From Candidatus Omnitrophota bacterium (lineage in GTDB: Bacteria; Omnitrophota; Gorgyraeia; Gygaellales; Profunditerraquicolaceae): 64,000 bases of DNA. The notes under the pieces were generated by a model. The model was not told where the DNA came from. It saw only the letters and a program-made list of their open reading frames with translations, and made no database searches. The stretch's first letter is position 1. The number at the start of each line of letters is the position of its first letter. The stretch covers positions 64,896-128,895 of the forward strand of contig QZKH01000009.1 in assembly GCA_003598025.1 (NCBI GenBank), written 5' to 3'. Below, one piece after another: positions 1,094-46,706 of the stretch. Both the position numbers and the translations under genes were made by a program.

Positions 1094-2932
1094 TTAACCA
1101 TCAATTATTGCCCTGTCGTCTAATTCGAGCACTATAAATTTGATACAGCGAAATCCCGCCGTTTTCTGGCGGGACGGTAGGACTTGAAAATTGAAATGCT
1201 TTGCCCTGTCGTCTAATCGGTAGGACTTCAGATTCTGGATCTGACTATCTTGGTTCGAGTCCAAGCGGGGCAGCCATTGTTGACAACTATCCGAAACTCC
1301 GGATAGTGATGCAGTGGGAACAAGCGCCTTACAGTCTTCTGTAGGGCGCTTTTCCTTTGTAGAGGCTATTTCGCTAGGGAGGATGCCTTCAAGCGGCTCT
1401 TCGATATACATATTGATTACCAGCCTGTCGCTATAGACGTAAATGTCCTTGATCAGGGCATGTATAAGGCTTTTCTGGGCTTCCGGAGGGGCGTCTTCAA
1501 GGTGCTGTATGGCAAAGTTCATGCTGCGGTATACGAGCTCGCCGGAACAGGCGTTTATGCTGGCAACTCTCTTTTGCGCCTGCAGCTTGTCTATTTCGTC
1601 TTCCAGTTTTGCAATCTCCATTTCCAACTCATTCATTTTGTCTTTATAAGTGGAGCCTTTGGTGACTGTGTTGCCCATGGCTAATTCCAGCAGTTTATTG
1701 GCTTGGAAGCGGAAGCCGTTTAGCTTTGTCTCTCTTTCTTTTAAGTCGGTCTCTATCTTTTCAAGCTTTGCCTGCGACTCAAGCATGGCGTCTCCCAGGG
1801 CCTTTATGATAATGCCCTTGTCCTCAGATGCCCGCCTAAAATAGTCGATTATAGCTTTGTCAAAAGTAGTTGCGGAGATGCGTGTTGCTTTGCATCCCAG
1901 AGCCTGCTTGGAGCGGCTGCACTCATAATAAAAAAACTTTCTTCTGTCTCTACCGCCTGAAAAATTGCAGACCATATGGCTTCCGCAGTCGCCGCATCGG
2001 AGAATACCGGCGAGGAGGTATTCATAGAATCTTTCTTTCTGCACAAAGTTGTGGCCGGGAAGCTTGGCGCTCAATATTTTGTTGGCCCGCTCCCAGAGCT
2101 TCTCATCGACAATCGCCGGGTGATTGCCTTTGTGGTATTCTCCGCTGTATTGAATATAGCCTTTGTAAAAAGGATTTTTTAATATCCTTGAAATAACCTG
2201 CCTGCGCCATTCCTTGCCGTTTAGAGTTTTTAGCCCGCGCCTGTGAAGCTCAAGGCCTACCTGCGTAAGCGACCGGTTATCCGCGGCCATCTCCCAGATG
2301 ATTTTAAGATGCGTAGTTATTTTTTCATCAGGAACAATTTTATGCGGCTGGCGGCCGTTAGGAAGCGGCTCTCCGTCTGGTATAAGCTTATATCCATAAG
2401 GCAGCATCCCGCCGACCCATTTGCCCTGGCGCACTCTGGCAATAGCGGATGCTTTCACGCGCTCGCCGGTGAGCTCCCGCTCAAAGGCTGACAAAATCCC
2501 AAGTATGCCAATTACTACTCTACCTATGGCGGTTGAGCTGTCCAAGTTTTCTCTTACCGAGACGAAATCGATTTCCTTTTCTCTGAATAGATCAATAAGC
2601 CAGTAGAGGTCCCGGGTATTGCGGGTCAAGCGGTCAAGGCGGAAGAAGATTATTCCGTCAAATGGGGCGGTTTCTCTACGCACGCGGTCGATAATCATCT
2701 GGATGCCGGGCCGGTTGAGATCCTTGCCGGAATATCCGTCATCGTCTATTCGGCCTTTTTTGCCTATCTTGGCAAGGTCATATCCAAAAGCGTCCAGCAG
2801 ATTCTTGCAGTGATAGGCCTGGGAATCCAGGGTGGTAAAATCTCCCTGGGCCTGGTCATCAGTAGAGCAGCGGGTATAGATTACATAGCGTTTTTTGTTA
2901 TTTGCATTATTTGTTTTGGCATTCATAATCAT
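1094..2932 (-). CDS. large serine recombinase (resolvase catalytic + recombinase + zinc-ribbon domains); 3' end disrupted because the last 57 codons are antisense of tRNA-Gln and the duplicate fragment
   Basis: N-terminus MIMNAKTNNANNKKRYVIYTRCSTDDQAQGD... (catalytic Ser in YTRCST). About 70% identical to the second recombinase at 23430-25529. Start chosen by alignment with the paralog (MIMKAK). Codons WLP = revcomp of tRNA 3' end GGGCAGCCA (1268-1276). Confidence 0.8.
   Translation of the reverse strand: MIMNAKTNNANNKKRYVIYTRCSTDDQAQGDFTTLDSQAYHCKNLLDAFGYDLAKIGKKGRIDDDGYSGKDLNRPGIQMIIDRVRRETAPFDGIIFFRLDRLTRNTRDLYWLIDLFREKEIDFVSVRENLDSSTAIGRVVIGILGILSAFERELTGERVKASAIARVRQGKWVGGMLPYGYKLIPDGEPLPNGRQPHKIVPDEKITTHLKIIWEMAADNRSLTQVGLELHRRGLKTLNGKEWRRQVISRILKNPFYKGYIQYSGEYHKGNHPAIVDEKLWERANKILSAKLPGHNFVQKERFYEYLLAGILRCGDCGSHMVCNFSGGRDRRKFFYYECSRSKQALGCKATRISATTFDKAIIDYFRRASEDKGIIIKALGDAMLESQAKLEKIETDLKERETKLNGFRFQANKLLELAMGNTVTKGSTYKDKMNELEMEIAKLEDEIDKLQAQKRVASINACSGELVYRSMNFAIQHLEDAPPEAQKSLIHALIKDIYVYSDRLVINMYIEEPLEGILPSEIASTKEKRPTEDCKALVPTASLSGVSDSCQQWLPRLDSNQDSQIQNLKSYRLDDRAKHFNFQVLPSRQKTAGFRCIKFIVLELDDRAIIDG
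1108..1185 (+). repeat. interrupted partial duplicate of the tRNA-Gln 5' half (pseudo-tRNA / att scar)
   Basis: 1108-1124 is identical to tRNA-Gln 1201-1217 (TTGCCCTGTCGTCTAAT). 1175-1185 (CGGTAGGACTT) matches tRNA 1218-1228. The two are separated by a 50-nt insert containing a CCCGCC-N7-GGCGGG hairpin. No T-arm or acceptor 3' strand. Confidence 0.45.
1202..1276 (+). tRNA. tRNA-Gln (anticodon CUG)
   Basis: Manual cloverleaf: acceptor TGCCCTG/CGGGGCA, D-stem GTCT/GGAC, anticodon stem TCAGA/TCTGA, loop TTCTGGA (U33, CTG, G37), T-arm CTTGG-TTCGAGT-CCAAG, discriminator G, encoded CCA 1274-1276. Confidence 0.85.
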
Positions 2933-2963
2933 AGAATTCCTACCACATTTTAATGCAGGCATA

Positions 2964-2994
2964 CGCCAGGCAGAAGATCTCCTTCTGCCTGGCG
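2964..2994. promoter_or_regulatory. perfect 13-bp inverted repeat (CGCCAGGCAGAAG-atctc-CTTCTGCCTGGCG) immediately upstream of recombinase start
   Basis: Read directly; lies between the recombinase start (2932) and the next minus-strand ORF. Confidence 0.4.
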
Positions 2995-3006
2995 GCGCTA
3001 AAACAG

Positions 3007-3330
3007 TTATGCCTGGGCCTTCTGCTTTTTGCCTTTTCCCCAGCCAGCCTTCCATCTGGCCACTGCCCCGGAGACGATCTCGTTGATGCGCTCCTGGGTT
3101 GTGCCTTCCTTGAGGATCTCAACAAGCTCTTCTTTGTTGATTACCCGGAAGTTTTTGATGCCGCGCTCTTTGGCTTTAAGCATCAGCTCATGGCGCGACG
3201 ACTCTTTGGCGGCTGATTTGCCGGCTTCAGGCTCTTTTGTAGCTTCTACCGGCGCGCTGGCTTTTTCAACGAACGGCATGTTCTTTGATGAGGACGTCTT
3301 TAAGAAATTTGCCGAGCTTGGCATGGCCAT
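3007..3330 (-). CDS. small Rho_N/SAP-like nucleic-acid-binding protein (start uncertain)
   Basis: C-terminal half HELMLKAKERGIKNFRVINKEELVEILKEG matches the Rho N-terminal domain consensus (L..LK..A.E.GI.N...M.K.ELI..IL). No SD seen at either candidate start. Overlaps antisense with the 5' end of the rSAM remnant. Confidence 0.4.
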   Translation of the reverse strand: MAMPSSANFLKTSSSKNMPFVEKASAPVEATKEPEAGKSAAKESSRHELMLKAKERGIKNFRVINKEELVEILKEGTTQERINEIVSGAVARWKAGWGKGKKQKAQA

Positions 3331-6518: not shown

Positions 6519-7967
6519 ATGGAGCTTGAGATTATTTTATTATGGGTTGCGGTGTTGATATTCGTGAGCGCTGTCTCAAGCAAGCTTTCGGACAGGTTCG
6601 CTATACCTGCTTTGTTGCTATTCTTGGTAATCGGGATTCTCGCCGGATCGGAAGGGATCGGCAGGATTTATTTTGATAATGCGCGGTTAGCTAAATCCAT
6701 CGGAGTCATCGCCCTTATTTTTATCATTTTTTCCGGCGGCCTTGATACTAACTGGAAAGATACTAAGCCGATAGTTTGGCCGGGAATTATTCTTTCCACC
6801 CTAGGAGTTTTGCTGACCGCAGTCATAACAGGTTTTTTTGCCGTATATATCTTTAAATTTTCTCTGCTTCAAGGAATGCTTCTCGGCTCCATTGTTTCCT
6901 CCACTGATGCCGCAGCAGTATTTAGTATCTTAAGGTCAAAACGAATAAGCTTAAAACAGCCCCTGAAGCCATTACTTGAATTTGAATCCGGCAGCAATGA
7001 TCCGATGGCGGTATTTTTGACTGTTGGTTTTCTTACTATCCTGATTGCCAAGAATATGGGTATCGCTGCTTTGATTCCTAGGTTTTTTCTGGACATGGGC
7101 ATGGGCGCGGTTATAGGATATTTGATGGCCAAAGTCATCGTATTTTCCATTAACCGCCTGAAATTGTACTACGAAGGGCTGTATCCGGCCGTGGTTATTT
7201 CTTTGGTCCTTTTGACTTATGTAATCGCTGTTTTCCTGAAAGGTAATGGGATACTGGCGGTGTATGTTGCGGGCCTGATGCTTGGCCAGGCAGACTTTCC
7301 GAATAAGAGGATGATTATAAGATTTCATGACGGCCTGGCATGGCTGATGCAAATCGCGATGTTTATAACATTGGGCCTGCTCGTTTTTCCTTCTCATATC
7401 ATTCCGTTGATAGGACAGGGATTGTTATTGACGTTTCTTCTTATGGCGATTGCCCGGCCTGTCAGTGTATTACTTTGTCTGTTACCGTTTAAAATGAATA
7501 TGCGCAAAAAAGCCATGGTCGCATGGGTTGGCCTAAGGGGTTCGGTTCCGATTATCTTGGCGACATTTCCTTTTATGGCGGGCATCGCGCAGGCGGACAT
7601 TATTTTTAATATTGTCTTCTTTATTGTTATCGCCTCGGTTCTTATCCAGGGGACATCTATTCCGATTGTCGCTAAAATATTGAAACTGGACCTTCCCTGG
7701 CCTAATAAAACGCGTTATCCTATTGAATTTGAAAAAACAGAAGGCATTGATGCTGAATTGACGGATATAATTGTCCCGTATAATTCAGGGGCAGTAGGTA
7801 AGATGATCCGTGATTTGAATGTTCCCGAAAAGTGTCTCATTATGCTTATTTCCAGAAACGATAAATTCATTATTCCTGCCGGACCTACGATTATAGAAGG
7901 CGGTGATGTTTTGCTTGTGCTTGCAAACACAGGAGATCTTTTGGCCTTTCAACAGGAGTTGGCATAG
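6519..7967 (+). CDS. CPA1-family Na+/K+:H+ antiporter (NhaP type) with C-terminal TrkA-C/RCK_C domain
   Basis: About 10 TM segments, FESGSNDPMAVFLTVGF motif, C-terminal ...IIEGGDVLLVLANTGDLLAFQQELA. Confidence 0.8.
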   Translation: MELEIILLWVAVLIFVSAVSSKLSDRFAIPALLLFLVIGILAGSEGIGRIYFDNARLAKSIGVIALIFIIFSGGLDTNWKDTKPIVWPGIILSTLGVLLTAVITGFFAVYIFKFSLLQGMLLGSIVSSTDAAAVFSILRSKRISLKQPLKPLLEFESGSNDPMAVFLTVGFLTILIAKNMGIAALIPRFFLDMGMGAVIGYLMAKVIVFSINRLKLYYEGLYPAVVISLVLLTYVIAVFLKGNGILAVYVAGLMLGQADFPNKRMIIRFHDGLAWLMQIAMFITLGLLVFPSHIIPLIGQGLLLTFLLMAIARPVSVLLCLLPFKMNMRKKAMVAWVGLRGSVPIILATFPFMAGIAQADIIFNIVFFIVIASVLIQGTSIPIVAKILKLDLPWPNKTRYPIEFEKTEGIDAELTDIIVPYNSGAVGKMIRDLNVPEKCLIMLISRNDKFIIPAGPTIIEGGDVLLVLANTGDLLAFQQELA

Positions 7968-13789: not shown

Positions 13790-13981
13790 ATGTGCCCTTA
13801 TTTTGTTGCTACAAGGCCGATTGGTTATTGCGGATGTTACGGAGACGGATTATTCCGCCCCAGCATCAAACGCAAAAAGCAGTATTGTGTGGGGAAATTT
13901 ATGGATTGCCCATTCTATCAATTAGAAATGAGGCCTATTATTATCAAGTCAGTGCGGGGATCGAAAAGTAATGAGGCATGA
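13790..13981 (+). CDS. Cys-rich small protein (paralog B)
   Basis: MCPYFVATRPIGYCGCYGDGLFRPSIKRKKQYCVGKFMDCPFYQ. Confidence 0.45.
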   Translation: MCPYFVATRPIGYCGCYGDGLFRPSIKRKKQYCVGKFMDCPFYQLEMRPIIIKSVRGSKSNEA

Positions 13982-14649
13982 ATATTTTAGCCTGGTTATT
14001 GCAAAAGCATTGGATGGTTATGAGGGATATTTCAATAATGGACATTGAAAGAGATCTTAAGAAATTAAATGATGACTTGCTTAAAAGCTGCCGTTTAACG
14101 CAGGAAGCCATAAGCAAAACATCCAGCATCCTGATGCGTTTTGATGCCGGGAAGATACGAGAGATAATAGATAATAACAAAAAAATAGGAGCTCTTTGCG
14201 TCGCCTCCGGGGAATATCTTACTAATATCATTAAACAGTATCAGCCCGAGGGCAGCGTCTTAACATTCATCTCTTCAAGCATAAGCGTTAATATTGAATT
14301 AAAACAAATTGGAGACTTAACCGCTGGTATTGCGGAAAGCCTATTAAGTTTAAATACAGATATCCCCGAGAGGTATAAAATCAATATTTCTCAATTTGCT
14401 AAAATTTTTCAAAATATTGTCTGGGATTCGGTTATTGCTTTTTTAAAACAAGACGCAGGGTTAGCTAAGAAGACTATTTTAGCAAGCCTGGAGTTAAAAA
14501 AGATATGCAGCCGCATGCAGGACGATTTAATAGAAACAAATAAAAAAGCAGAAACAACGGAAAGAGGCGAAACCATTTTATTATTTATTATCCAGAGTGT
14601 AGGTGATATCGCTGCGCACACAGTCAATATTGCGGAAATTAGCGCATAA
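13978..14649 (+). CDS. PhoU-domain protein
   Basis: C-terminal ...SVGDIAAHTVNIAEISA matches the PhoU repeat signature. Confidence 0.5.
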   Translation: MNILAWLLQKHWMVMRDISIMDIERDLKKLNDDLLKSCRLTQEAISKTSSILMRFDAGKIREIIDNNKKIGALCVASGEYLTNIIKQYQPEGSVLTFISSSISVNIELKQIGDLTAGIAESLLSLNTDIPERYKINISQFAKIFQNIVWDSVIAFLKQDAGLAKKTILASLELKKICSRMQDDLIETNKKAETTERGETILLFIIQSVGDIAAHTVNIAEISA

Positions 14650-14672
14650 GGATTAAGAATGAGTTAAGCTAA

Positions 14673-15104
14673 ATGTGTATAATTAAAAAAAGCGACTACA
14701 GGAGAATGAAGGAGTTAATAATTGGCTATGAGGCCGGGGGTTTTCCTGATCGACAAACAAAAAAACACATTTTATTTGTTAAAGAAAAGTTAAATAAAGC
14801 AAAAAAAGTTGATGATACTTATCCCGGACTCACTGATATCGTATACCTTAATTCTGCAGTAAGGTTTAAAAATATATCAACTGCGGAGGAAAAGGAATAT
14901 TTATTTGTCATTCCAAAAATTGAGTGCAAAGAACTGGGCAGAGTTTCTGTGCTTTCTAATTTAGGAATTGCTTTGCTGGGGCATAAGAAAGGAGATACCG
15001 TAGAAGTAAAAGAATCCGACGGATCAAAATACAGTGTTCAAGTATTAAAGATACAACCCACATCAGAGTTATGGATTAAAAAGCTCGAGCAATATAAAGA
15101 ATAG
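14673..15104 (+). CDS. GreA/GreB C-terminal (FKBP-like) domain protein, Rnk-like
   Basis: VSVLSNLGIALLGHKKGDTVEVKESDGSKYSVQVLKI. Confidence 0.55.
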   Translation: MCIIKKSDYRRMKELIIGYEAGGFPDRQTKKHILFVKEKLNKAKKVDDTYPGLTDIVYLNSAVRFKNISTAEEKEYLFVIPKIECKELGRVSVLSNLGIALLGHKKGDTVEVKESDGSKYSVQVLKIQPTSELWIKKLEQYKE

Positions 15105-15140
15105 AAAGCTAATCTAAAATAATATAGAGAAGGAGCAGCA

Positions 15141-15659
15141 ATGAAAGACAAACAAATTTATATAACAAAGCCGGATTTTGACCGCCTCACAGAAATAACC
15201 AAAAATATAAGGTCTAGGCAGGAGATTGACAGGCGCTCTCTTGATGAGCTGGAGCACAGCTTCAGCTCGCGGGATGAATTAGGATTAATTAAAGAAGTAA
15301 GAAAAATAAAAAGCTCAAGGAACGATACGGAGTGGGCGCGGATTGAAGAGCTTGAAGCCGAGTTAAACAGGGCAATTGTAGTTGATGCCGACAAAATTCC
15401 GCCTGATATCGTTACGATGAACTCAAAGGTTTGCCTTAGGGATGCCGATACAGGCAAAGACGAAATTTATCAATTAGTATACCCCGAAGACGCAGATATT
15501 GAGCAAAACAAAATCTCTATTTTAGCTCCCATTGGCACAGCAATATTGGGATATAAAGTAGGAGATATTATTGAATGGAAAGTCCCGGCAGGTTTAAGAA
15601 AACTTAAAATTAAGAAAATAGTATATCAGCCGGAAGCGGCCAAAGAATACCAACTCTAA
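15141..15659 (+). CDS. GreA/GreB-family regulator (coiled coil + FKBP-like C-domain)
   Basis: ISILAPIGTAILGYKVGDIIEWKVPAGLRKLKIKKIV. Confidence 0.55.
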   Translation: MKDKQIYITKPDFDRLTEITKNIRSRQEIDRRSLDELEHSFSSRDELGLIKEVRKIKSSRNDTEWARIEELEAELNRAIVVDADKIPPDIVTMNSKVCLRDADTGKDEIYQLVYPEDADIEQNKISILAPIGTAILGYKVGDIIEWKVPAGLRKLKIKKIVYQPEAAKEYQL

Positions 15660-15670
15660 ACTCAGGCGAT

Positions 15671-17023
15671 ATGAATAAGAAAATTATTAAAAAAGCAGAA
15701 GAACTGATAGCGCAAAGAAAACTTTCCGAATTAAAGGAGATTATTCCGCAGCATCCGGAAGACATAGCGTATTTTATCTCTCATCTTTTTAATCCATCCT
15801 GGAAAATGATCGTATTCCGCATGATTCCTCCCGAGACCGCCGTGGAAGTCTTTATGAGTTTTCCTGTAGAGGAGCAGGAAAAAATGCTCGAGGATTTAAC
15901 CACATCTGAAATCAGGACAATCTTAAATGAAATGTCGGTTGACGACAGGACTGGATTATTTGAAGAAATGCCCGCGGAGCTGGTTAAAAAATTTATGAGC
16001 TATCTTTATTATGAGGAAAGAGAGATAGCACAGCAGATACTTAATTATCCCGATAATTCCGTGGGAAGGCTGATGACTCCGGACTTTGTGCAGCTTTATG
16101 AAGACATGACTGTTGAAGCCGCCCTGGAGCACATAAAACAAATCGGCTTAAAAACAGAAACAATTTATCACGCTTATGTATTAAACGCCGAAAGGAAATT
16201 AATAGGCGTGGTATCGCTTAAAAAAATAGTTTTAGCCCAGGCTGGCGCGCTGATAAAAGACATTATGTTTAGAGATGTGAAGAAGATTAACGTATACCGG
16301 GATCAAGAAGAGGCTTTAGGCATTTTTAAAAAATATGACCTTTTGGCCCTGCCGGTTATAGATAATAACGAGAAGTTATTAGGGATAATAACCTTTGATG
16401 ATCTGGTAGATGTTATTGATGAGGAGGCCACAGAAGACTTCCAAAGAATTGCCGCAGTTGTCCCTATAGAAGAGCCTTATCTTGAGACGGGCCTATTTAA
16501 TATACTTTGGAAAAGAAGTTTTTGGCTTATCTTATTGGTGATTTTGGGATCTGCGTCGGGCTTTATTCTTCAAAAGTTCCAGCTGACTATACAAAAATGG
16601 ATTGCATTAAGTTTTTTTCTCCCCATGCTTGTTGATACAGCCGGTAACGCAGGCACCCAATCCTCGACGATAGTTATCAGGAGTTTGGCGGTGGGAGAGA
16701 TAAAAATAAACGATTTTCTCAGGGTAGCTTTAAGAGAGTCAATGCTGGGGATTTTATTAGGCGGCATTTTGGCCTTAGCGTGCATATTAAGGGTGTTTTT
16801 TCAAGAATATAACTGGGGTTTGAGCTTTTCTGTGGGGCTTTCTATGGGATTAACGGTTATCATTTCCGCAGTGATAGGCGCCAGCCTCCCCATTATATTA
16901 AAAAAGATTAAATTAGACCCCGCTCTGATGAGCGGGCCTTTACTTACAACAATAATTGATATCTTGGGCATTACAATATATTTCTGGATTGCAAATAAGT
17001 TCTTGTTTTTGCTGAGAATCTAA
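15671..17023 (+). CDS. mgtE: magnesium transporter MgtE
   Basis: MgtE_N domain, CBS pair, C-terminal 5-TM MgtE domain (PMLVDTAGNAGTQS). Confidence 0.85.
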   Translation: MNKKIIKKAEELIAQRKLSELKEIIPQHPEDIAYFISHLFNPSWKMIVFRMIPPETAVEVFMSFPVEEQEKMLEDLTTSEIRTILNEMSVDDRTGLFEEMPAELVKKFMSYLYYEEREIAQQILNYPDNSVGRLMTPDFVQLYEDMTVEAALEHIKQIGLKTETIYHAYVLNAERKLIGVVSLKKIVLAQAGALIKDIMFRDVKKINVYRDQEEALGIFKKYDLLALPVIDNNEKLLGIITFDDLVDVIDEEATEDFQRIAAVVPIEEPYLETGLFNILWKRSFWLILLVILGSASGFILQKFQLTIQKWIALSFFLPMLVDTAGNAGTQSSTIVIRSLAVGEIKINDFLRVALRESMLGILLGGILALACILRVFFQEYNWGLSFSVGLSMGLTVIISAVIGASLPIILKKIKLDPALMSGPLLTTIIDILGITIYFWIANKFLFLLRI

Positions 17024-17076
17024 AAATAAGATTAAAGGCCAGCTTAGAAAGCTTAAAAAGTTAAGGAGGATGCCAA

Positions 17077-17292
17077 ATGAGCCGGAATGTGATATTAAAC
17101 ATAGGAGACACGATAAAATATTCCGGAGAGTGTACCGGCATTATTGAGAAAATCAGGATAATTTCAACGGGGAATTATATTGAGCAGTATGAATATAACG
17201 GCAATGGCGAAGATATAGTTTTAACCTTAAGAAATGATCACGGCATAACAAATCTTTGGCTTAAAGATACGTCTATTTCTAAAATATTCTAA
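17077..17292 (+). CDS. hypothetical protein (71 aa)
   Basis: ORF with SD AAGGAGGA. Confidence 0.3.
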   Translation: MSRNVILNIGDTIKYSGECTGIIEKIRIISTGNYIEQYEYNGNGEDIVLTLRNDHGITNLWLKDTSISKIF

Positions 17293-17294
17293 AA

Positions 17295-17582
17295 ATGGGC
17301 TGCAAACGTAAAGGAAGGATTTCTGACAGATTACTGGAGGTTAAAGTAAAGAGCGTAGATAATAATGCCAAGAGATTAGTTACGGAGGAAATAAGGGTTA
17401 GCGGAAACAGGGCGAAGCATATAAAGACAATTTTTACTGTAGACACCCAAACACTGATTATAGGAAATGGCAATAAAAACGCTGGCCTTCACGATATAAA
17501 AGCCGGAAATAAGATCAATATAGATTTTATAAAGACCCAAGATAAAAAATTGCTGGCCAAGGGTATTGCTTTATTAGATTAA
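17295..17582 (+). CDS. hypothetical protein (95 aa)
   Basis: ORF starts 3 nt after the previous stop. Confidence 0.3.
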   Translation: MGCKRKGRISDRLLEVKVKSVDNNAKRLVTEEIRVSGNRAKHIKTIFTVDTQTLIIGNGNKNAGLHDIKAGNKINIDFIKTQDKKLLAKGIALLD

Positions 17583-17661
17583 GTCTTATTGAAAGGAGGT
17601 GAGCGAAAAGCATTTCAGGCATAGCGGTTAATAGTAATTACATAACAGAAAGGAGCGTCTA

Positions 17662-17838
17662 ATGGCTGCAAAAATAAAGAAAATTACAACCGATAAGAAA
17701 GAAACCTCCGTTGGATCTGAAAAGTTCTTTGTTGAGGTGCAGAAGAAAGCATATTATCTTTGGGAAAAAGAAGGAAAACCTCAAGGCAAGGATTGGGATA
17801 TATGGCTTAAAGCGGAAAAAGAGGTTTTGGGCAGATAA
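17662..17838 (+). CDS. DUF2934-like small protein (58 aa)
   Basis: KKAYYLWEKEGKPQGKDWDIWLKAEKE matches the DUF2934 signature; SD AAAGGAG; not in ORF track. Confidence 0.5.
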   Translation: MAAKIKKITTDKKETSVGSEKFFVEVQKKAYYLWEKEGKPQGKDWDIWLKAEKEVLGR

Positions 17839-17956
17839 AAATATTAAAGCAGTATGGGCAAATAACCCGCGGCCTGTATTTTAGGCCTTATAATAGGCTG
17901 TCTACGCAATAGCAGAGTTGCCATTATCCGGGTTTAAATGTAAAGGAGCGGAGGCC

Positions 17957-18418
17957 ATGGCAATAACCGTATTTGTTAGTTTTAACCACGCTGACCAAAA
18001 ACAGCTTGAAGCTTTTGATTTGCTTAAAAATAAGACGAAACATGTTTTTGAATCTCATGACCATTTATGCAAAGAAGTATCGCCGGACGGCAGCGAAAAA
18101 TTAATTATATGCCAGATAAACGAAGGCCGTTCAAAACCAATGCGCGAAGAAATTATCAAGAAATTCGAGCAGTGTTCTAAGCTGGTAGTTTTAATGGGGA
18201 ATGAAACCTATAAAGACGCATGGGTTGAATGGGAAGTCAACAATTTTTATAAGATGAAAGATGCGCTTTTGCCTGGTAAAGCGTGGATGAATATTCGTGG
18301 TATGTTTCTTGAAGGCTGCGAAAAAGCGACAGCTCCTAAGGCTTTGGAATGCAGGTCGACGCAACGCTTGGCTTGGGACCCCGAGGCTTTAGAAAAATGG
18401 ATAGACGAATTAAGTTAA
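17957..18418 (+). CDS. TIR-like domain protein (DUF1863 / Thoeris ThsB-like)
   Basis: MAITVFVSFNHADQK... resembles the ThsB N-terminus (MAKRVFFSFHYQD, recalled from memory). Later KLVVLMGNETYKDAWVEWEV resembles ThsB VLIGSQTFNRRWVRYEI. SD AAGGAGCGGAGG precedes ATG 17957. Confidence 0.6.
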   Translation: MAITVFVSFNHADQKQLEAFDLLKNKTKHVFESHDHLCKEVSPDGSEKLIICQINEGRSKPMREEIIKKFEQCSKLVVLMGNETYKDAWVEWEVNNFYKMKDALLPGKAWMNIRGMFLEGCEKATAPKALECRSTQRLAWDPEALEKWIDELS

Positions 18419-18443
18419 AACAGGCGCGCAATAAAGTGAAAGA

Positions 18444-19193
18444 ATGCGGAAAGGGTATTTTTATATAGCAAATCAAACCCGCAGCGGAAAGCGCATAGGG
18501 TTGGTTTTTATCCTTAATATTGGGAATGGGAAGCTTCTAAAGCTCTCTACTTTAAAATATATTTGTAATGATAACAGCATTCTCATTATTTTTACGCCTG
18601 TATCAAATAGCGAATCCGGTATTTTAACAAAACATTTGAAACGGAGCAGTATTTTTCATAGAACATTTGACAGCCGAATTTGTAAATTACTCGGGGAGAT
18701 TATTTCCGGCATGTTGAAGCCGGATATCGGCGCAGATCTTGTTATTAGAGAGCTTACCGAAAGGCAAAATAAGGACTATAAATATTTTGAATACAAATGC
18801 TATGATAAAATATATATACCCGGCACGATTCCAATGAAACGGAGTAATGAAATTGAAGTAAACAACCACAAAATAAAACTCGGAGACTCTATGTTTAAAT
18901 TATTCCTGCGCCTTGTGCTAGAATTAAAAAAGAAAAAGGAGGGTTGGGTTCATAGGCATAGCCTGGGTTCAGACAATATCATTATGGATGTCGAAAAATT
19001 CCAGATTTACAGCAATCTTAGGACGGCTTTGCAAGGAAGTCTATTAGATAAGGACGGCCAGAAGTTTATAGAGAACAACGGCTCAAAGCAGTACCGGATA
19101 TCGCTCCACCCAGATTTTATTACCTACGACAGAGAAAAACTCCTCAAGCACCCCGATAGCAGTATTCAGAAGCTCGCTAAAAAACTAACCTAA
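18444..19193 (+). CDS. uncharacterised 249-aa protein adjacent to the TIR-like gene
   Basis: No recognisable motif; AT-rich; 25-nt gap after the TIR gene suggests an operon. Confidence 0.4.
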   Translation: MRKGYFYIANQTRSGKRIGLVFILNIGNGKLLKLSTLKYICNDNSILIIFTPVSNSESGILTKHLKRSSIFHRTFDSRICKLLGEIISGMLKPDIGADLVIRELTERQNKDYKYFEYKCYDKIYIPGTIPMKRSNEIEVNNHKIKLGDSMFKLFLRLVLELKKKKEGWVHRHSLGSDNIIMDVEKFQIYSNLRTALQGSLLDKDGQKFIENNGSKQYRISLHPDFITYDREKLLKHPDSSIQKLAKKLT

Positions 19194-19300
19194 CTATAAT
19201 CCGGCGCATTAATCTTGATTGCTAATAAGAAAAATTCTTGGTATTATCTAAAGTGTAATAATGTTAAATCATTTGTGTTAGGAGATTCGCATATGCCTAA

Positions 19301-19453
19301 GAGTTACCTAAAAAATTTCTTATTGTGCTTATTTCTCGTGAAGGCAAGTTTATGATACCGTCAGGCAATACCGTTGTTATAGAAGGTAGAGATGTTTTGC
19401 TGGTGCTTGCAAATATGGCAGATCTTTCTATTTTTCAGCAAACCGTAGCATAG
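19301..19453 (+). pseudogene. 3'-terminal remnant (~45 codons) of a paralogous CPA1 antiporter gene
   Basis: In-frame stop at 19298. Remnant KKFLIVLISREGKFMIPSGNTVVIEGRDVLLVLANMADLSIFQQTVA* aligns with the C-terminus of the 6519-7967 product (CLIMLISRNDKFIIPAGPTIIEGGDVLLVLANTGDLLAFQQELA*). Confidence 0.6.
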
Positions 19454-19474
19454 CTTAAAAGGGATCAAGAGTAG

Positions 19475-20746
19475 ATGTCGAAATTCTCTGAGGTTTTAAA
19501 ATCCCGTAATTTTTTCTGCCTCTGGCTGGGGCAGATCATCTCGCAACTTGGGGACAGGCTTTCACAGATGGCCTTGATTGCCTTTGTTTATTCAAGGGCG
19601 CCGGGTTCAGCTTATGAAATCGCCAAGATACTGTCATTTACAATAATCCCTGTATTTTTAATCGGTCCGATTGCCGGTGTTTATGTAGATAGATGGGATA
19701 GGCGTAAAACCATGTATGCATGCGAATTCCTGCAAATGATTTTAATTTTCACTATACCTTCCTTTCTATTTTATACCAAAAATATGATTCCTATTTATAT
19801 CATCGTTTTTATATCATTCTGTATCGGCAGGTTTTTTGTGCCGGCAAAACTGGCGATTATCCCTGAGTTAGTTGAGCCCAGGAATTTGCTGATGGCAAAT
19901 TCCTTAGTGAATATTACCGGTATGATCGCCACTATCGCCGGTTTTGGTATCAGCGGTATCTTGGTAGAGGTGGCTGGCCCCAAAAAAGGTTTTTACATGG
20001 ATTCTTTAAGTTCTTTAATTTCTGGCACATTTATATTTTTTATTTCCAGCAAAACTGCTGTTTCCTTAAAACATCCGGCGTTTAAAGATGTAATTTTAGT
20101 AAGCCGGGATATCGTGCAGAAGATCAGAAAGTCTATTTGGCTTGAGATCAAGGAAGGTATAATTTACTTTTTACGCCATAAAAATATTCGTTTCATCGCC
20201 GCAGTGATGTTTCTGGTATTCTCTGCCCTGGGTTCGGTGTATGTGGTTTTGATTATCTTTGTGCAGCAGGTTTTACAATCCGCGACCAAAGACGTAGGGT
20301 TATTAATTATGTTTTTGGGTGCCGGGCTTTTTGCGGGCTCTATGCTTTACGGCAAGTTTGGCAGCCGGGTTTCCGAATATAAGGCGATATTTTCCGCCTT
20401 AATTTTAAGCGGTATGGTGTTGATTGTATTTGCCGTAACGCTAAAGAATTACCCTAAATTCTATATGGCGGCATTTTTATCTTTTATCTTCGGCATATTT
20501 GTTTCGCCGATTCTATCTGCCTGTAATACCATTATACATAATGTCAGCAGCAATGAAATGATGGGCAAAGTTTTCAGTTCCCTTGAGATGGTAATGCATC
20601 TCGGGTTTCTTATATTTATGTTTATTAGCAGCATCTTAAGCGCAAAATACGGTCCTTTCATCATGCTTGTGGTTGTGGGAAGCGTAATAATTCTTTTAGG
20701 GGCAATCAATCTTATTTATCAGCGCAGGGCTTCTTGGCTGAATTAG
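19475..20746 (+). CDS. MFS transporter
   Basis: 12 predicted TM segments; G..DRWDRRK motif. Confidence 0.7.
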   Translation: MSKFSEVLKSRNFFCLWLGQIISQLGDRLSQMALIAFVYSRAPGSAYEIAKILSFTIIPVFLIGPIAGVYVDRWDRRKTMYACEFLQMILIFTIPSFLFYTKNMIPIYIIVFISFCIGRFFVPAKLAIIPELVEPRNLLMANSLVNITGMIATIAGFGISGILVEVAGPKKGFYMDSLSSLISGTFIFFISSKTAVSLKHPAFKDVILVSRDIVQKIRKSIWLEIKEGIIYFLRHKNIRFIAAVMFLVFSALGSVYVVLIIFVQQVLQSATKDVGLLIMFLGAGLFAGSMLYGKFGSRVSEYKAIFSALILSGMVLIVFAVTLKNYPKFYMAAFLSFIFGIFVSPILSACNTIIHNVSSNEMMGKVFSSLEMVMHLGFLIFMFISSILSAKYGPFIMLVVVGSVIILLGAINLIYQRRASWLN

Positions 20747-21009
20747 TCTAAGTATTTTTCTTATTATTGGTGCTGGCCCTTGGTCGATTGACGCAGATAT
20801 AATAGCCGCCCATATAATTTTTTTAATTCAACGGACGGCGTAACAAGGAATGGGAGGGGTGTTTAGCATGACTGGTAATTTATATCAGGATTGGCCTGTA
20901 TATGTATTGCTAGGAGGAGCAGTAGTATGGATTATTTGGTTAATTATCAAAAGTAATTTAGCAGACAAAAAGGATGACTCTTCAACGAAAAAAGACAATA
21001 AATAGTTCA

Positions 21010-22257
21010 ATGGCACTTATGACTTTTAATTCTCCAACCGCAGCAAGAAGGAGAGCCTTAAATATTATTATTCTTTTTGGTTTGGTCAGCCTTTTTGGTG
21101 ATATTGCTTATGAGGGGGCGCGTAGCGTCAACGGTCCTTATCTAAAACTGCTTGCGGTAAACGCTGTTACCCTAGGGGTGATAACCGGGATAGGAGAGTT
21201 TCTGGGATATACCTTGCGTTTACTTTCAGGGTATGTTTCGGACAAGACAAAATCGTACTGGCTTCTGACTATTGTTGGATATGGTTTGTTGGTGAGTGTG
21301 CCGTTGCTTTCTCTGGCTGGCATATGGCAGATTGCTGCGCTGTTTATAATTTTAGAAAGAATAGGCAAGGCCATCCGCAGCCCCGCAAGGGATACCATAC
21401 TTTCGCAGGCAAGCTCACAGGTTGGCACCGGATTTGGGTTTGGCCTGCATGAAGCGATGGATCAGATTGGCGCGGTTGCCGGGCCTTTGATTTTTACGGT
21501 CTTTTTTATGCTGATAGGCAAAGAGCAGATAGGAATTGTCGCTTATCAGAAAGGGTATGCCTTTCTTTGGATTCCTTTTTTACTGGTCATGTTTTGCCTG
21601 TTTGTTTCTTACCGGGAGGTCCCTCATCCAGCTGCTTTGGAGGCCGCGGGGAAAAAAGCAAAAATTCTAGATAGACTCTCCAAAGTTTTTTGGCTGTATA
21701 CGCTGTTTACTTTTGTTACGACGTTGGGTTTCTGCTCTTTTTTACTGCTTGCTTTTCATTTTAAGTCTTCTAATATTCTCCCTGACGCGCAGATTCCTTT
21801 GTATTATTCAATAGCGATGGGCATTGATGCCGTAGCTGCTTTATCGGTCGGTAAACTATACGATGTAATGAAAACCCGCAAGAATAACCACAATGCTGGA
21901 TTAGATTTATTGGTTATCATTCCAATTATGACGCTTTTGATGTCGCTATTCGTATTCTCCCAACGCCATATCCTTGTTATTATCGGAGTGCTTTGTTGGG
22001 GGATAGTAATGGGCGTTCACGAGACAATTATGCGCTCGGCGATTGCAGATATTACCTCTCTAAACAAGCGAGGAACAGGTTACGGCATTTTTAACACCAC
22101 ATATGGTCTGGCAGTTTTTTTGGGGAGTGTCTTATTGGGATTTTTGTATGATCGTTCGATAGCATTCGTTATCACGGCAGTTATTTTTGTGGAGTGCCTG
22201 GCCTTAGCGGCTTTCTTTTATCTGAAACAAGAAACCTCAAAGGAGATAACGGCATAG
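21010..22257 (+). CDS. MFS transporter
   Basis: 12 TM segments; start moved to MALMTF (internal ATG). Confidence 0.6.
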   Translation: MALMTFNSPTAARRRALNIIILFGLVSLFGDIAYEGARSVNGPYLKLLAVNAVTLGVITGIGEFLGYTLRLLSGYVSDKTKSYWLLTIVGYGLLVSVPLLSLAGIWQIAALFIILERIGKAIRSPARDTILSQASSQVGTGFGFGLHEAMDQIGAVAGPLIFTVFFMLIGKEQIGIVAYQKGYAFLWIPFLLVMFCLFVSYREVPHPAALEAAGKKAKILDRLSKVFWLYTLFTFVTTLGFCSFLLLAFHFKSSNILPDAQIPLYYSIAMGIDAVAALSVGKLYDVMKTRKNNHNAGLDLLVIIPIMTLLMSLFVFSQRHILVIIGVLCWGIVMGVHETIMRSAIADITSLNKRGTGYGIFNTTYGLAVFLGSVLLGFLYDRSIAFVITAVIFVECLALAAFFYLKQETSKEITA

Positions 22258-22302
22258 CGCATGCATAGACAAGAATTACCGAAATGCTGGTTTATGCTTT
22301 TG

Positions 22303-22385
22303 GCAATAGGTATTCAATTATCTCCCGGCGTTCTTGGATGGGTTTTAGGTGTGAATATTTAAAAGTTCTCTGCCGGTGAAACAAA
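22303..22385 (-). pseudogene. remnant of a serine-recombinase gene 3' end (~28 codons)
   Basis: Minus-strand translation ...NFDLFHRQRTFKYSHLKPIQERREIIEY aligns with the Rec2 C-terminus ...TLRIFTGRRLLNISRLKTIQERRDMINQ. About 80% nt identity to 23455-23522. Confidence 0.45.
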
Positions 22386-22396
22386 TCAAAATTGTG

Positions 22397-22449
22397 TTGA
22401 CTTTATCTAATTGTCTAATATAATAAACAATTGTCTAATACATTAGACA
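22397..22449 (+). promoter_or_regulatory. promoter (TTGACT-16-TATAAT) with TTGTCTAATA direct repeats and palindrome TGTCTAAT-ac-ATTAGACA: likely autoregulatory operator of the MNT/HEPN pair
   Basis: Read directly, upstream of 22459. Confidence 0.45.
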
Positions 22450-22458
22450 GGAGAGAAG

Positions 22459-23013
22459 ATGGGGAAAAGAAATAATAAGGTAATAGATATATTCGGCGCG
22501 ACTAATTCCCTTAAGGTGCTTTCGTATCTTGCCCAGGACCCGAGTAAGGAATTCTTAGCCAGCGAAATTCAGAAGACTACCCTTGCCAGCAGAGCAGGGG
22601 TGTATTTCGCTTTAAAAGAGCTTATGCGGCAGGGTCTGGTTTCGCAAGAGAGAAGAGGCAAGGTTATCTTTTACCGCATTGTCTATGATGACGCAGCTAT
22701 AAAGCAGTTTAAGATATTGAAGAATGTGTTTTCCTTACGCCCTATCGTAGCCAAGCTTAAACCTTTCTCGCGTAAGATTGTGCTTTACGGCAGCTATAGC
22801 CGCGGTGAGAATGATCCTGCCAGCGACATAGACCTTTTTATACTCTCAAAGGATCCAGAGGCAACAAAAGACGCCCTTTCTTCCCTTAAAACTAAGCAAA
22901 AACTCCAGACTGTAATTAAGACTGCAACTGAAATGGCCAGCTTTAAAGAAAGCGAAAAAGTCTTCATGCAGGAAGTAGAACGTGGCATAGTGCTCTGGGA
23001 GGAGAAGGGATGA
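22459..23013 (+). CDS. wHTH + minimal nucleotidyltransferase (MNT) antitoxin-like protein
   Basis: LYGSYSRGENDPASDIDLFIL (GS..RGE...SDID NTase motif). Confidence 0.7.
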   Translation: MGKRNNKVIDIFGATNSLKVLSYLAQDPSKEFLASEIQKTTLASRAGVYFALKELMRQGLVSQERRGKVIFYRIVYDDAAIKQFKILKNVFSLRPIVAKLKPFSRKIVLYGSYSRGENDPASDIDLFILSKDPEATKDALSSLKTKQKLQTVIKTATEMASFKESEKVFMQEVERGIVLWEEKG

Positions 23014-23444
23014 CCATAGAATATGATGATTGCCTAAAGAGAGGCAAGATTAAGCCGTTTTCACGCGGGCCTGCGTTGGCAGCAAAGGAAATAGAAGCAG
23101 CAGAAGCAGACTTAAGTCGGGCGCATAAAACCTACAGCGAAACCGACTATAAATGGGCAACTATTCAGACCTATTATTCGATGTTTCACAGCGCAAGGGC
23201 CTTGTTATACGCCAAAAGCCTGCGGGAACACAGCCATTATTGCCTTGTCGCTGCCATTAAGACTTTGTACGTTGAGACGAAGGTTATCCCGGTATATATC
23301 CTTGAAGGTTTCCAGCAGGCCAAAACTTTAAGGGAAGAGGCTGATTATTATAACCGTTGGTCCCAAGCAGGCTGCGAAAAACTTATAAAGTTGGCCGAAG
23401 AGTTCTTAGGAATAGGTAGGAATACAATTTTACCTAGGCAATAA
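23010..23444 (+). CDS. HEPN-domain toxin-like protein
   Basis: Overlaps the MNT gene by 4 nt; SLREHSHY and REEADYYNR (Rx4-6H HEPN motifs). Confidence 0.65.
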   Translation: MTIEYDDCLKRGKIKPFSRGPALAAKEIEAAEADLSRAHKTYSETDYKWATIQTYYSMFHSARALLYAKSLREHSHYCLVAAIKTLYVETKVIPVYILEGFQQAKTLREEADYYNRWSQAGCEKLIKLAEEFLGIGRNTILPRQ

Positions 23445-25529
23445 TAGCTGGTTTATCATATCCCGGCGTTCTTGAATGGTTTTTAGGCGGGAAATGTTCA
23501 AAAGGCGTCTGCCGGTGAAGATTCTTAATGTCTCTTGATTGCCGCATTGCTTCATATTTTCAACAAATTCCGGAGGTAGCTTGTTGACTATTTTCAACAA
23601 GTGGGCTAATTTAGACTCTGATATATTTAGTTCTCTACAGGTTTTTGCCCAGGTTATTTTGGTCTGGCCGCTGTTAATGAAGGCCTTAATCTTTAGGGCC
23701 TCTACTATGGTGTTTGGGTAGATTCGGGGCTTGCGGACGGGTACCGGCGGCAGAGGATCTACTAAACTAAGCAAAATCCGCTTGCTTCTCCGGATATCCA
23801 TCTTCACAACCAATTGAACCACTTGGGGTTCTGCGGTGCGGCGGAAGACAACATTGGGCAGCCACTCTGGACGAATATTCGAACCACCAGCAGTTGGCAC
23901 CAGTGCCCTACAGTGATCCTGTGGGGCATTGCTGTTTTTAGGGGCATTTCCGGGGTTATTGTGGGTGTTTTCGGGTAGGTGGCAGGCAATCTCTTCGTAA
24001 GGGCTGCCTACATACATGCGGAATTCCACACGGTCATCTAGGACTGTTATGGATTTGATTAATAGCTGCAGCAGGGCTTTCTGGTTTTCCGGAGTGGCCT
24101 TATCAAGGTACTGAATAGCAAATTTAAAGTTAGAGTATAAAAACTCGCTGGAGTTAGCGGTCATTTGAGCGACTTTTCTTTGGGCTTCAAGCTTGGATAA
24201 TTTCTCTTGAAGCGCGAAGATCTCATTATCAAGGGCATCCATCTTGGTTTTGTAAGTGGCGCCTTTTGAGATAGCGCCTTCAATCGCAAGGGAGAGCAGC
24301 TTGTCTGCTTTTTCCCTTGCGATTTTTAGTTTCTCCTCGGCCTGCTTGATTTCTTTCTGCACTTTACCAAGTTTGTCCTTGGCATCAATTGCCGCGTCAC
24401 CCACGGCCTTTACGATAATGTCCTGGTTCTGTGAGGCAACTCTAAAGAAATCAATTACAGCTTGGTCAAGCTGCGTAGCCGGTAGATTAGGGACATCACA
24501 TCCTAATCTTTGTAATGACCGGCTGCAGGCGTAGTAAAAAAACTTCCTGCTCCTGCCATTAGCAAAATAGGATATGTAGTGGCTTCCGCACTTTCCACAC
24601 CGAAGTATCCCATTCAATAAGTAAACATACTCCTTAGGTTTTTTAGTGAAGTAGTGCTTTGGCGTGTTGCCGGTAAGAATTTTATTGGCTTTCTCCCAGA
24701 GGCCGTCGTCAATAAGCGGAGGGTGGTTACCTTTGTGCAGTTCACCGGCGTAGCGGATCATGCCTTTGTAGAAAGGGCTTTTTAGTATGGCAGCAATGCT
24801 TTGCTTGCGCCAGCTTTTTCCTTTGTAGGTTGGGACTTCCAGCTTAACCAATGTATTGCCGATTTCAGTCAACGACTTATTCTCAGCAGCCATTTGCCAG
24901 ATGGCTCTTAACTTCGGGCCTATTTCTTCATTGATTACAACCTTGTGAGGCTGCCTGCCGTTTGGCAGCATGGGTCCGTCATTAATAAGTTTATAACCTA
25001 AAGGAAGCGCTCCGCCAGTCCACTTGCCTTGGCGGGCCCGGGCAATGCAAGAGGCTTTAACGCGTTCACCGGTGAGTTCGCGTTCAAAGGCAGAAAGGAT
25101 CCCGAGTATGCCAATTACTACTCTGCCTATAGCAGTTGAGCTGTCAAGATTCTCGCGTACGGATACAAAAGCAATTTCTTTGGAGTTGAATAGATCAATA
25201 AGCCAGTAGAGGTCGCGGGTATTGCGAGTCAAGCGGTCAAGCCGTAAGAAGATTAAGCCGTCAAAGGATTTCTTGCCGCTATGAATATCGTTAAGCACTG
25301 ACTGTATGCCTGGCCGATTCAAGTCTTTTCCGGAGTAGCCGTCATCATAGACAACACCGGATTTTCCGAAAGCAGCCATCTCATAGCCAAAGGCGTCAAT
25401 CATATTCTTGCAGTGGTGCGCCTGAGCATCAAGAGTGGTATAGTCGCCCTGGGCCTGGTCATCAGTGGAGCAGCGAGTATAGATGATGTAGCGTTTCTTT
25501 TTGTTATCTGGTTTTGCTTTCATAATCAT
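23430..25529 (-). CDS. large serine recombinase, full length, with C-terminal HTH extension
   Basis: MIMKAKPDNKKKRYIIYTRCSTDDQAQGD...; the internal codons EWLP are encoded by revcomp of GGGCAGCCA at 23856-23864, the same 9-mer as the tRNA-Gln 3' end. Confidence 0.85.
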   Translation of the reverse strand: MIMKAKPDNKKKRYIIYTRCSTDDQAQGDYTTLDAQAHHCKNMIDAFGYEMAAFGKSGVVYDDGYSGKDLNRPGIQSVLNDIHSGKKSFDGLIFLRLDRLTRNTRDLYWLIDLFNSKEIAFVSVRENLDSSTAIGRVVIGILGILSAFERELTGERVKASCIARARQGKWTGGALPLGYKLINDGPMLPNGRQPHKVVINEEIGPKLRAIWQMAAENKSLTEIGNTLVKLEVPTYKGKSWRKQSIAAILKSPFYKGMIRYAGELHKGNHPPLIDDGLWEKANKILTGNTPKHYFTKKPKEYVYLLNGILRCGKCGSHYISYFANGRSRKFFYYACSRSLQRLGCDVPNLPATQLDQAVIDFFRVASQNQDIIVKAVGDAAIDAKDKLGKVQKEIKQAEEKLKIAREKADKLLSLAIEGAISKGATYKTKMDALDNEIFALQEKLSKLEAQRKVAQMTANSSEFLYSNFKFAIQYLDKATPENQKALLQLLIKSITVLDDRVEFRMYVGSPYEEIACHLPENTHNNPGNAPKNSNAPQDHCRALVPTAGGSNIRPEWLPNVVFRRTAEPQVVQLVVKMDIRRSKRILLSLVDPLPPVPVRKPRIYPNTIVEALKIKAFINSGQTKITWAKTCRELNISESKLAHLLKIVNKLPPEFVENMKQCGNQETLRIFTGRRLLNISRLKTIQERRDMINQLLLPR

Positions 25530-25558
25530 AAAAATCACTCCTTTAATCTGCTGGGGTT

Positions 25559-45036: not shown

Positions 45037-45093
45037 TTGACATTTGCACTAAATGTTCATAAAATGTGAACTAATCGTTCACGCATCGTGAAC
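45037..45093 (+). promoter_or_regulatory. promoter (TTGACA) with palindrome GTTCAC-gcatc-GTGAAC (candidate operator of the second MNT/HEPN pair)
   Basis: Read directly. Confidence 0.4.
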
Positions 45094-45111
45094 ACTTATC
45101 CGGAGGCGATA

Positions 45112-45651
45112 ATGGAAAGCATTTTTTCTACAAAGGAACGATTAAAAATCCTAAAAGCAGTTATTTTTAATAAAGCGCCTATCAGCGTTAATGTCATTGC
45201 CGCTCAGCTTAAACTAAGCAAGGGGCTGGTCTCTAAGTACTTTGAAGTTCTGCTAAAAGAAGGCATTGCTAAGAAGTCAAATGGTAAATACCTTATAGTT
45301 GACTCTTCCTTTACAAAGGCAGCCAAGATTTTATTAAATATAATCGGCATTGATGCGGAAATTTTCAAGAAGTTTGACTTTGTGGAGGCTGTTGGCCTTT
45401 ATGGTAGTTGCGCTAAAGGGGAGAACACAGATGATTCTGATGTGGATCTCTGGATAAAGATTAAAAGCGTAAGTGATGAGAAAGCCGCCTCTTTAACTAC
45501 TATAATGAGCAAGAAAATCAAGAATGTTAAGCCGTTATTCTTAACTACCGAGAAGATTGAGAAGATGAAAAAGGATGACATGCTTTTCTATCATTCCTTG
45601 TCATTCGGCTCAATCGTTCTCTACGGAGAAAATAATGCCATTCAATTATAA
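45112..45651 (+). CDS. wHTH + minimal nucleotidyltransferase (MNT) antitoxin-like protein (paralog of 22459)
   Basis: LYGSCAKGENTDDSDVDLWI; SD GGAGG before ATG 45112. Confidence 0.7.
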   Translation: MESIFSTKERLKILKAVIFNKAPISVNVIAAQLKLSKGLVSKYFEVLLKEGIAKKSNGKYLIVDSSFTKAAKILLNIIGIDAEIFKKFDFVEAVGLYGSCAKGENTDDSDVDLWIKIKSVSDEKAASLTTIMSKKIKNVKPLFLTTEKIEKMKKDDMLFYHSLSFGSIVLYGENNAIQL

Positions 45652-46535: not shown

Positions 46536-46706
46536 TTCGACTCGGCCTTCGGCCTCGCTCAGTACGAGTAGTTTATTAGAAAAGTCCGTATTGGGTTGCT
46601 TTTATTTATTACTTGGACGAGAACCAAAGTGGTGCGGGGTGAGACCGTCCCCGCGCTTTCGCGGTGACAGGGAGCTAAGGTAACGACGAATCGAAGGAAA
46701 ACATTC

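Follow-up and report, generated by a model that had tools for sequence, protein, structure and literature searches.

Within a 64,000-nucleotide stretch of a Candidatus Omnitrophota contig (hereafter the window, meaning the whole stretch that was analyzed), a gene for a ThsB-type TIR protein of 153 amino acids (aa; positions 17957 to 18418, forward strand) is followed by a gene for a 249-aa protein, here named Y (18444 to 19193, forward strand). An initial annotation of this DNA had read the pair as a candidate Thoeris-like anti-phage module with Y as its effector. We favor, with a probability of roughly 0.6, the reading that these are two functionally independent genes, set side by side by recombination where a conserved gene block meets a hypervariable island. 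The pair is probably an accident of recombination, and not a co-evolved Thoeris-like pair. The TIR gene would be a stand-alone gene that is inherited at the edge of the island with or without Y, and Y would be a naturally shortened member of a family of longer proteins, a promoterless operon-tail gene that was recombined onto the 3' end of the TIR gene. Judging from the source names of the homologues, the window comes from a relative of Ca. Velamenicoccus archaeovorus.

The distribution of the two families was followed in about 90 loci related to that of the window. Scanning the Y alignment against one genome per species yielded 31 loci, scanning the TIR alignment against metagenome contigs yielded 45, and neighbors were counted with tblastn and profile hidden Markov models. 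Y follows the TIR gene in four of the 42 TIR-family loci for which downstream sequence is available (4/23 among those at least 74% identical), and a TIR-family open reading frame (ORF) lies near Y in two of 41 Y-family loci. Every TIR-Y locus has the same upstream synteny, mgtE-orf71-orf95-DUF2934-TIR, which points to one single event, and the junction is kept in at least seven related genomes or contigs. Ca. V. archaeovorus itself holds two Y copies, one behind a TIR gene and one behind a patatin gene. The initial annotation had staked its proposal on the two genes being found together in other genomes; they co-occur in one syntenic lineage and nowhere else in these loci, and a two-gene module with a 249-aa effector is thus not borne out.

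The breakpoints point to how the two genes came to be adjacent. Homology to all relatives that lack Y ends at position 18409, inside the last codons of the TIR gene. One of these (L032) is 99.77% identical to window positions 15001 to 18409 (3.4 kb) and unrelated beyond, and the homology of L033, L038, L041, and others ends at this very base. Strain alignments place the recombination junction at 18410 to 18443 (forward strand), where a replaced TIR tail (…ELS*) precedes 25 nt of spacer that move together with the gene behind them. Where Y is absent, TIR alleles end in …W(I/L)(E/D)xxP(G/D)A* (for example …WIEENPGA*), a tail conserved down to 46% identity, while the Y-linked alleles end in …ELS*. 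Locus L003 has a patatin-like lipoprotein gene before Y, and it is the end of this gene that the new tail and the spacer match; GAAGAATTrArTTAr terminates the patatin gene there too, with the same nucleotides as at the TIR-Y junction (L003, …GGATTAGAAGAATTGAATTAA…; the TIR-Y locus L001, …GGATAGAAGAATTAAGTTAG…; window, …GGATAGACGAATTAAGTTAA…). This match indicates joining at short microhomology. In the window's lineage, the Y segment would have replaced the last five TIR codons, apparently donated by a patatin-Y locus and joined via the microhomology GGAT(T)AGAAGAA, and later crossovers within Y would have exchanged the downstream cargo.

On the right-hand side, homology to other TIR-Y loci ends at the Y stop codon (19190), and at least four different downstream flanks are found after Y, with no correlation with the upstream gene. 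The spacer after Y (19194 to 19300, forward strand) holds what resembles the truncated beginning of an HTH_17 (excisionase-like) gene, with its ATG at 19293: window positions 19232 to 19315 are similar to the spacer and first codons (MPKxYL; MPKSYL… here) of an HTH_17 gene located in L089 between Y and a DUF4062-HATPase_c_4 gene. That this is a cut-off HTH_17 gene start joined to an antiporter fragment is possible, a weak suggestion drawn from one other locus. The 50 aa encoded by the fragment itself (19301 to 19453, forward strand) share 62% identity with the C-terminal end of the ORF at 6519 to 7967, which combines Na_H_Exchanger and TrkA_C, and the fragment matches TrkA_C at E 1.8e-4. The initial annotation was therefore right to see here a 3' fragment of a paralogous antiporter gene and an indel or insertion scar, which can now be bounded by the break at 18409 relative to Y-less strains and the right edge at 19190, followed by the truncated gene.

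The ThsB-like identity proposed for the first gene also stands. Its ORF runs from an ATG at 17957, preceded by a good Shine-Dalgarno sequence, to a stop at 18416 to 18418 and encodes 153 aa, not 154 as first given, beginning MAITVFVSFNHADQK. The protein matches Pfam ThsB_TIR (PF08937) at E 2.3e-11 and 44.4 bits (cutoff 21.2 bits) and several PADLOC ThsB models, of which ThsB1 is the best (E 4.8e-7). In a search against PDB chains with a profile built from 22 homologues, its WVEWE motif (E93) aligns with the W-x-x-E of solved TIR/ThsB chains, E93 in WVEWEV pairing with the glutamate of WVKYEI or WVPHEV; this residue is nearly invariant among the 22 homologues. By these alignments, the gene encodes a ThsB-type TIR that keeps the putative catalytic glutamate. 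The protein is most likely an immune factor that cleaves NAD+, either on its own or together with a partner encoded elsewhere. It is stand-alone in most relatives, and its ratio of nonsynonymous to synonymous substitution rates (dN/dS) relative to them is 0.04 to 0.16, indicating purifying selection, whether Y is present or not. Throughout the Omnitrophota loci, the TIR gene closes a conserved PhoU-GreA-(MgtE) block, and the region downstream differs in almost every genome. Compared with Ca. V. archaeovorus (L001), the window shows only 82% identity in the TIR protein, against 98% in the adjacent MgtE, and 80% in the product of a nearby 71-aa ORF; the TIR gene and the 71-aa ORF diverge or recombine at a higher rate than the core genes around them. 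A phage origin of either gene was considered and rejected, as a collection of 2.9 million viral contigs contained no TIR matches and three matches to Y. Distant TIR homologues (at most 54% identity, apparently from other lineages; L056 to L058, L060, L061, and L065) have recurrent neighbors of their own, among them a downstream protein of 386 to 404 aa with class-III cyclase-like motifs and an upstream pair of 403 and 310 aa, and these may be real TIR-partner systems.

Y is of a different nature. It starts at an ATG at 18444, on the same strand and exactly 25 nt past the TIR stop, and the initial annotation was correct both in its ORF and in the lack of a recognizable motif, since Y finds no match in Pfam, PADLOC, NCBIfam, or PHROGs; a Y profile found nothing at E <= 1 among PDB sequences, and Y itself does not match Pfam Trans_reg_C (PF00486) at that threshold. 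The only confidently modelled part of the predicted structure is a winged-helix domain of the OmpR/PhoB type (residues ~97 to 249, here the C-module), with the expected N-terminal β-sheet, three helices, and C-terminal β-hairpin wing. The remainder (residues 1 to ~100, the N2 region) has a predicted local distance difference test score (pLDDT) below 50. Neither the library scans nor the predicted fold revealed a signal-binding, toxic, enzyme, pore, or nucleotide-sensor domain. The structure prediction that the initial annotation had called for thus returned a DNA-binding fold in the C-terminal ~150 residues and no effector domain. By its fold, Y is predicted to be a DNA-binding protein and not a toxic effector, and it may serve as a DNA-targeting or sensing module.

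The resemblance to known OmpR/PhoB winged helices (VicR 2hwv, BaeR, AdeR, CadC, and ToxR) is one of predicted fold, with an identity of 13 to 21%; Y has the fold without being a sequence member of Trans_reg_C. It lacks a receiver domain and carries extra conserved flanks (DYKxFEYKCYD… and …HPDFITYD). Down to 46% identity, the family shows hardly any variation in the recognition helix and wing (FQIYSNLRTAL … YRIS-HPDF), so that the recognition helix is not diversified as it is among OmpR/PhoB domains.

Genes of the length found in the window (short Y) have a consistent context. Without exception they stand at the end of co-directional operons with unrelated functions (L086 to L092, L002 to L005, and L008), including ExbB-ExbD-TonB, pst-PhoU, PilMNO, and RND-patatin operons as well as a small lipoprotein gene, and the distance to the upstream gene ranges from a 4-nt overlap (TonB) to a gap of ~35 nt. 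There is no evident promoter in the short spacer, and short Y is presumably expressed by read-through, in the window from the TIR gene; the TIR-Y gap contains no terminator-like site, and co-transcription of the two genes can be expected. The DNA that follows short Y is variable and encodes methyltransferases, AAA_14/DUF4143 ATPases, HTH_17 with DUF4062, or MFS and NTase-HEPN proteins. Genomes carry several Y copies each, and contig breaks at Y are common. Short Y genes would mark the start of variable DNA that is rich in defence genes and mobile genetic elements. The other short Y genes are 65 to 85% identical. Reading frames are intact in all ten Y copies whose coding sequences were compared, and a dN/dS of 0.03 to 0.08 overall (0.03 to 0.19 in the N-terminal part, 0.025 to 0.056 in the C-terminal part) indicates strong purifying selection, both with and without an adjoining TIR gene. 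Between L039 and L037, successive thirds of Y are 100%, 96%, and 75% identical and the 3' third tracks the downstream flank, a gradient which implies that crossovers inside Y have shuffled the cargo. The proposal that Y is the effector of the TIR protein is unsupported on several counts: the predicted winged helix, the near-identical strain that has the TIR gene without Y, the paralogues that follow patatin, TonB, PhoU, or PilO genes, and the partner that the family has elsewhere.

That partner, which we take to be ancestral, is a 368-aa protein, here named X. Long relatives of Y always come with X and are translationally coupled to it. It directly precedes a long form of Y (~365 aa, with ~118 more N-terminal residues), mostly with a 4-nt overlap, in 14 complete loci (L011 to L023 and L029; in L013, for example, X occupies 6535 to 7641 and long Y starts at 7638), and a 15th locus (L026) holds an X fragment only. 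The window Y is 46 to 57% identical to the C-terminal two-thirds of the long proteins, aligning to positions 115 to 368 of the 369 in the Y-family profile with the first ~114 positions absent, and the window contains no X homologue, the TIR gene holding the position of X upstream of Y. X has 91 homologues across several candidate phyla, and X-Y pairs from different phyla are 79 to 85% identical, which suggests horizontal transfer. A profile of X gave nothing significant among PDB sequences; its fold is CENP-N/YejK/RdgC-like, a fold which in those proteins forms DNA-binding clamps (PMC11229321). The X-Y module carries no annotation in any library. Often a DUF2188 gene lies before the pair and restriction-modification genes lie nearby. 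A transposon nature of X-Y was considered and rejected, since the loci share no terminal sequences and the fold of X is DNA-clamp-like and not that of a transposase. A recent loss of X from a patatin-X-Y locus (L017) is likewise an unlikely source of the patatin-Y arrangement, as the patatin genes are 88% identical and the Y proteins only ~47%.

Given its place at operon tails, Y might instead delimit an integrative or mobile island that inserts at operon 3' ends. The TIR gene would then be just an insertion target, and the predicted DNA binding of Y would serve the element, for example in integration or excision control or in cargo silencing. The constant position of Y between an unrelated operon and variable DNA, its multiple copies and the contig breaks at them, the excisionase-like HTH_17 gene or remnant after Y in L089 and in the window, and the likely horizontal spread of X-Y all fit such an island. 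However, the DNA upstream of Y or X shows neither conserved terminal repeats nor a shared left-end sequence, Y has no consistently linked recombinase, X looks like a DNA clamp and not like a transposase or integrase, and matches in viral contigs are as rare as stated above. The serine recombinase near Y belongs to a separate element inserted in another gene: loci L078 to L082 match the window at 100% identity from ~18279 to 23864, with divergence setting in within the recombinase ORF (…GGGCAG|CC…), and in L079 the last 144 codons of this ORF belong to a separate 214-aa gene without a Pfam match. A serine-recombinase element thus appears to have integrated into this 214-aa gene, leaving Y, the MFS genes, and the NTase-HEPN pair outside the element, and Y was rejected as its left boundary. 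Homologues of the C-terminal part of the recombinase ORF lie downstream of Y in L004, L019, and L023. On balance, we regard an island bounded by Y as a rather unlikely explanation.

The relatives of Y nevertheless tie it to defence. A profile search over 1.84 billion representative proteins returned 632 relatives, in which the last ~150 residues, not covered by any Pfam model, recur behind unrelated N-termini. These N-terminal parts are QatC-like in P0290 (PADLOC E 4.7e-49; 48% identity to the C-module of Y), PD-Lambda-3_B-like in P0318 (PADLOC E 4.6e-27; 44%), SduA-like, as in Shedu, in P0320 (PADLOC E 3.8e-8; 45%), and a WD40 propeller in P0270 (Pfam). In the first three the module is fused to an enzyme, whereas in the window it is attached only to the ~100-aa N-terminal region. 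In one recent structure paper on QatC, a word search for winged-helix or DNA-binding domains came up empty. We place the Y family in the gene pool of conflict systems, as a predicted DNA-binding module rather than a toxic effector. The defence context that the initial annotation had proposed for the 249-aa gene is in this respect supported by its relatives, while the paired module is not.

In Thoeris, a ThsB TIR acts with ThsA or ThsC-L effectors (types I to XI); 11 types have been validated and ~29 effector types proposed (bioRxiv 10.64898/2025.12.03.692087). The window locus shares with these systems the ThsB family PF08937, the W-x-x-E glutamate, and a second gene that follows on the same strand. 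It differs in that Y has no SIR2, SLOG, Macro, caspase, transmembrane, or other effector or signal-binding domain and is instead a predicted winged helix, and in that the TIR gene, usually alone, is joined to Y in one syntenic lineage only. As the initial annotation had noted for Y itself, no SIR2, SLOG, or Macro signature was found, and the PADLOC models returned no ThsA, SIR2, SLOG, or Macro partner among all 68 ORFs of the window. With the TIR protein and its glutamate present, but neither an adjacent effector nor co-occurrence across genomes, the locus should not be filed as a Thoeris system. In most genomes the gene looks like one of the stand-alone TIRs, such as SpbK of B. subtilis (PMC12847820), a class which the systematic Thoeris survey sets aside (bioRxiv 10.64898/2025.12.03.692087): the window TIR likewise lacks a conserved operon partner, lies at the edge of a variable region, and diverges faster than the flanking core genes, although it is much smaller (153 aa, TIR only) and the sequence similarity is limited to the TIR core.

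Several observations weigh against a chance juxtaposition of independent genes. The adjacency on the same strand, the 25-nt gap, and the absence of a terminator give the pair the appearance of an operon. The junction has persisted while Y diverged to ~76 to 82% nucleotide identity and the downstream flanks changed, and some selection for adjacency is therefore possible. The C-module is covalently joined to real defence proteins elsewhere, the exchange of TIR and patatin genes upstream of Y resembles the effector swapping of modular defence systems, and the poorly modelled N-terminal 100 residues of Y could hide a ligand-binding function. These points lend themselves to a young, lineage-specific two-gene immune module built by domain shuffling, in which the winged helix of Y would sense or bind foreign DNA or regulate the locus and so control or recruit the TIR NADase or signal synthase. 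The retained catalytic-type glutamate of the TIR protein, the presence of the junction in at least seven genomes or contigs, and the large diversity of proposed Thoeris partners are in keeping with such a module. It is hard to reconcile, however, with a TIR gene that is conserved, and that purifying selection maintains, in the absence of Y (38 of 42 loci, the near-identical strain among them), with a Y that is conserved without TIR in 39 of 41, and with a junction that destroys the conserved C-terminal tail of the TIR protein. Y also has no recognizable signal-binding or toxic domain, and a word search of the systematic TIR survey found no mention of helix-turn-helix, winged-helix, or DNA-binding effectors (bioRxiv 10.64898/2025.12.03.692087). 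We consider a young module distinctly improbable. A long shot, slightly less probable again, is the more far-reaching version in which the C-module is an undescribed, widely shuffled DNA-binding domain of conflict systems whose capture behind the TIR gene made a working two-gene immune module. That Y is a functionless, decaying remnant of an X-Y module after deletion, as its lack of X and of the N-terminal ~118 residues present in all long-form relatives might suggest, is hardly credible, since the dN/dS of 0.03 to 0.08 contradicts a pseudogene and shows that Y is not a dead remnant, the frames are intact, and the short form persists in copies as little as 65% identical.

The surroundings of the two genes agree less well with the initial description. 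The pair was thought to be AT-rich relative to its neighborhood, and at 38.6% GC it does lie below the window as a whole (41.3%), but the conserved housekeeping block just upstream (13978 to 17023) is equally AT-rich (38.0%), and base composition was discarded as a mark of foreign origin. The small genes nearby exist (71 aa, 95 aa, and a 58-aa DUF2934 protein; 17077 to 17838, forward strand) but are not orphans, since they are syntenic in many relatives (L001, L010, L032, L033, L036 to L039, L041, L043, L044, and L046). The DUF2934 gene (17662 to 17838; Pfam E 4.6e-11) lies before the TIR gene in many relatives within the Omnitrophota, in L047 with an overlap of the TIR start. Because L042, L045, and L049 lack it, it was rejected as the true partner of the TIR protein.

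Further afield, several integrative elements, or the scars of such elements, seem to be present in the window. The 702-aa ORF at 23430 to 25538 (reverse strand), which reads as a large serine recombinase, is the fusion described above, with the break at 23864/23865. A second NTase-HEPN pair (45088 to 46081) is followed by a convergent, paralogous remnant of the same target gene (46110 to 46637, reverse strand) and, beyond this, by a tRNA-Leu (46754 to 46837). A third large serine recombinase (1094 to 3055, reverse strand) abuts a tRNA-Gln (1202 to 1276). Among the 68 ORFs of the window, the PADLOC models also gave matches to SduA (DUF4263), once at E 7.2e-9, to PDC-M05A and PDC-M43B in two ORFs each, and to PD-T4-6, PDC-S09, and PDC-M60B.

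If the capture of Y behind the TIR gene did create a working module, it would represent a DNA-sensing winged-helix protein that gates or targets a TIR enzyme, a configuration absent from the ~30 proposed for Thoeris. On the reading preferred here, that of two independent genes joined by recombination, the locus is rather a worked example of how weakly adjacency by itself argues for a defence operon: with 25 nt between them, a TIR gene and an uncharacterized gene mimic a new Thoeris type, and it is the breakpoints against near-identical strains together with reciprocal surveys of genomic context that reveal the junction. Three leads remain, real but modest and with functions that are predicted. 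For defence mining, there is a divergent OmpR-like winged-helix module, without a Pfam model, at the C-terminus of QatC-, Shedu-, and PD-Lambda-3-like proteins. There is, in addition, an uncharacterized and horizontally spread X-Y module that combines a protein of CENP-N/YejK/RdgC fold with Y. For the Omnitrophota, finally, there is the habit of short Y to sit at the tail of unrelated operons, just where variable islands begin.

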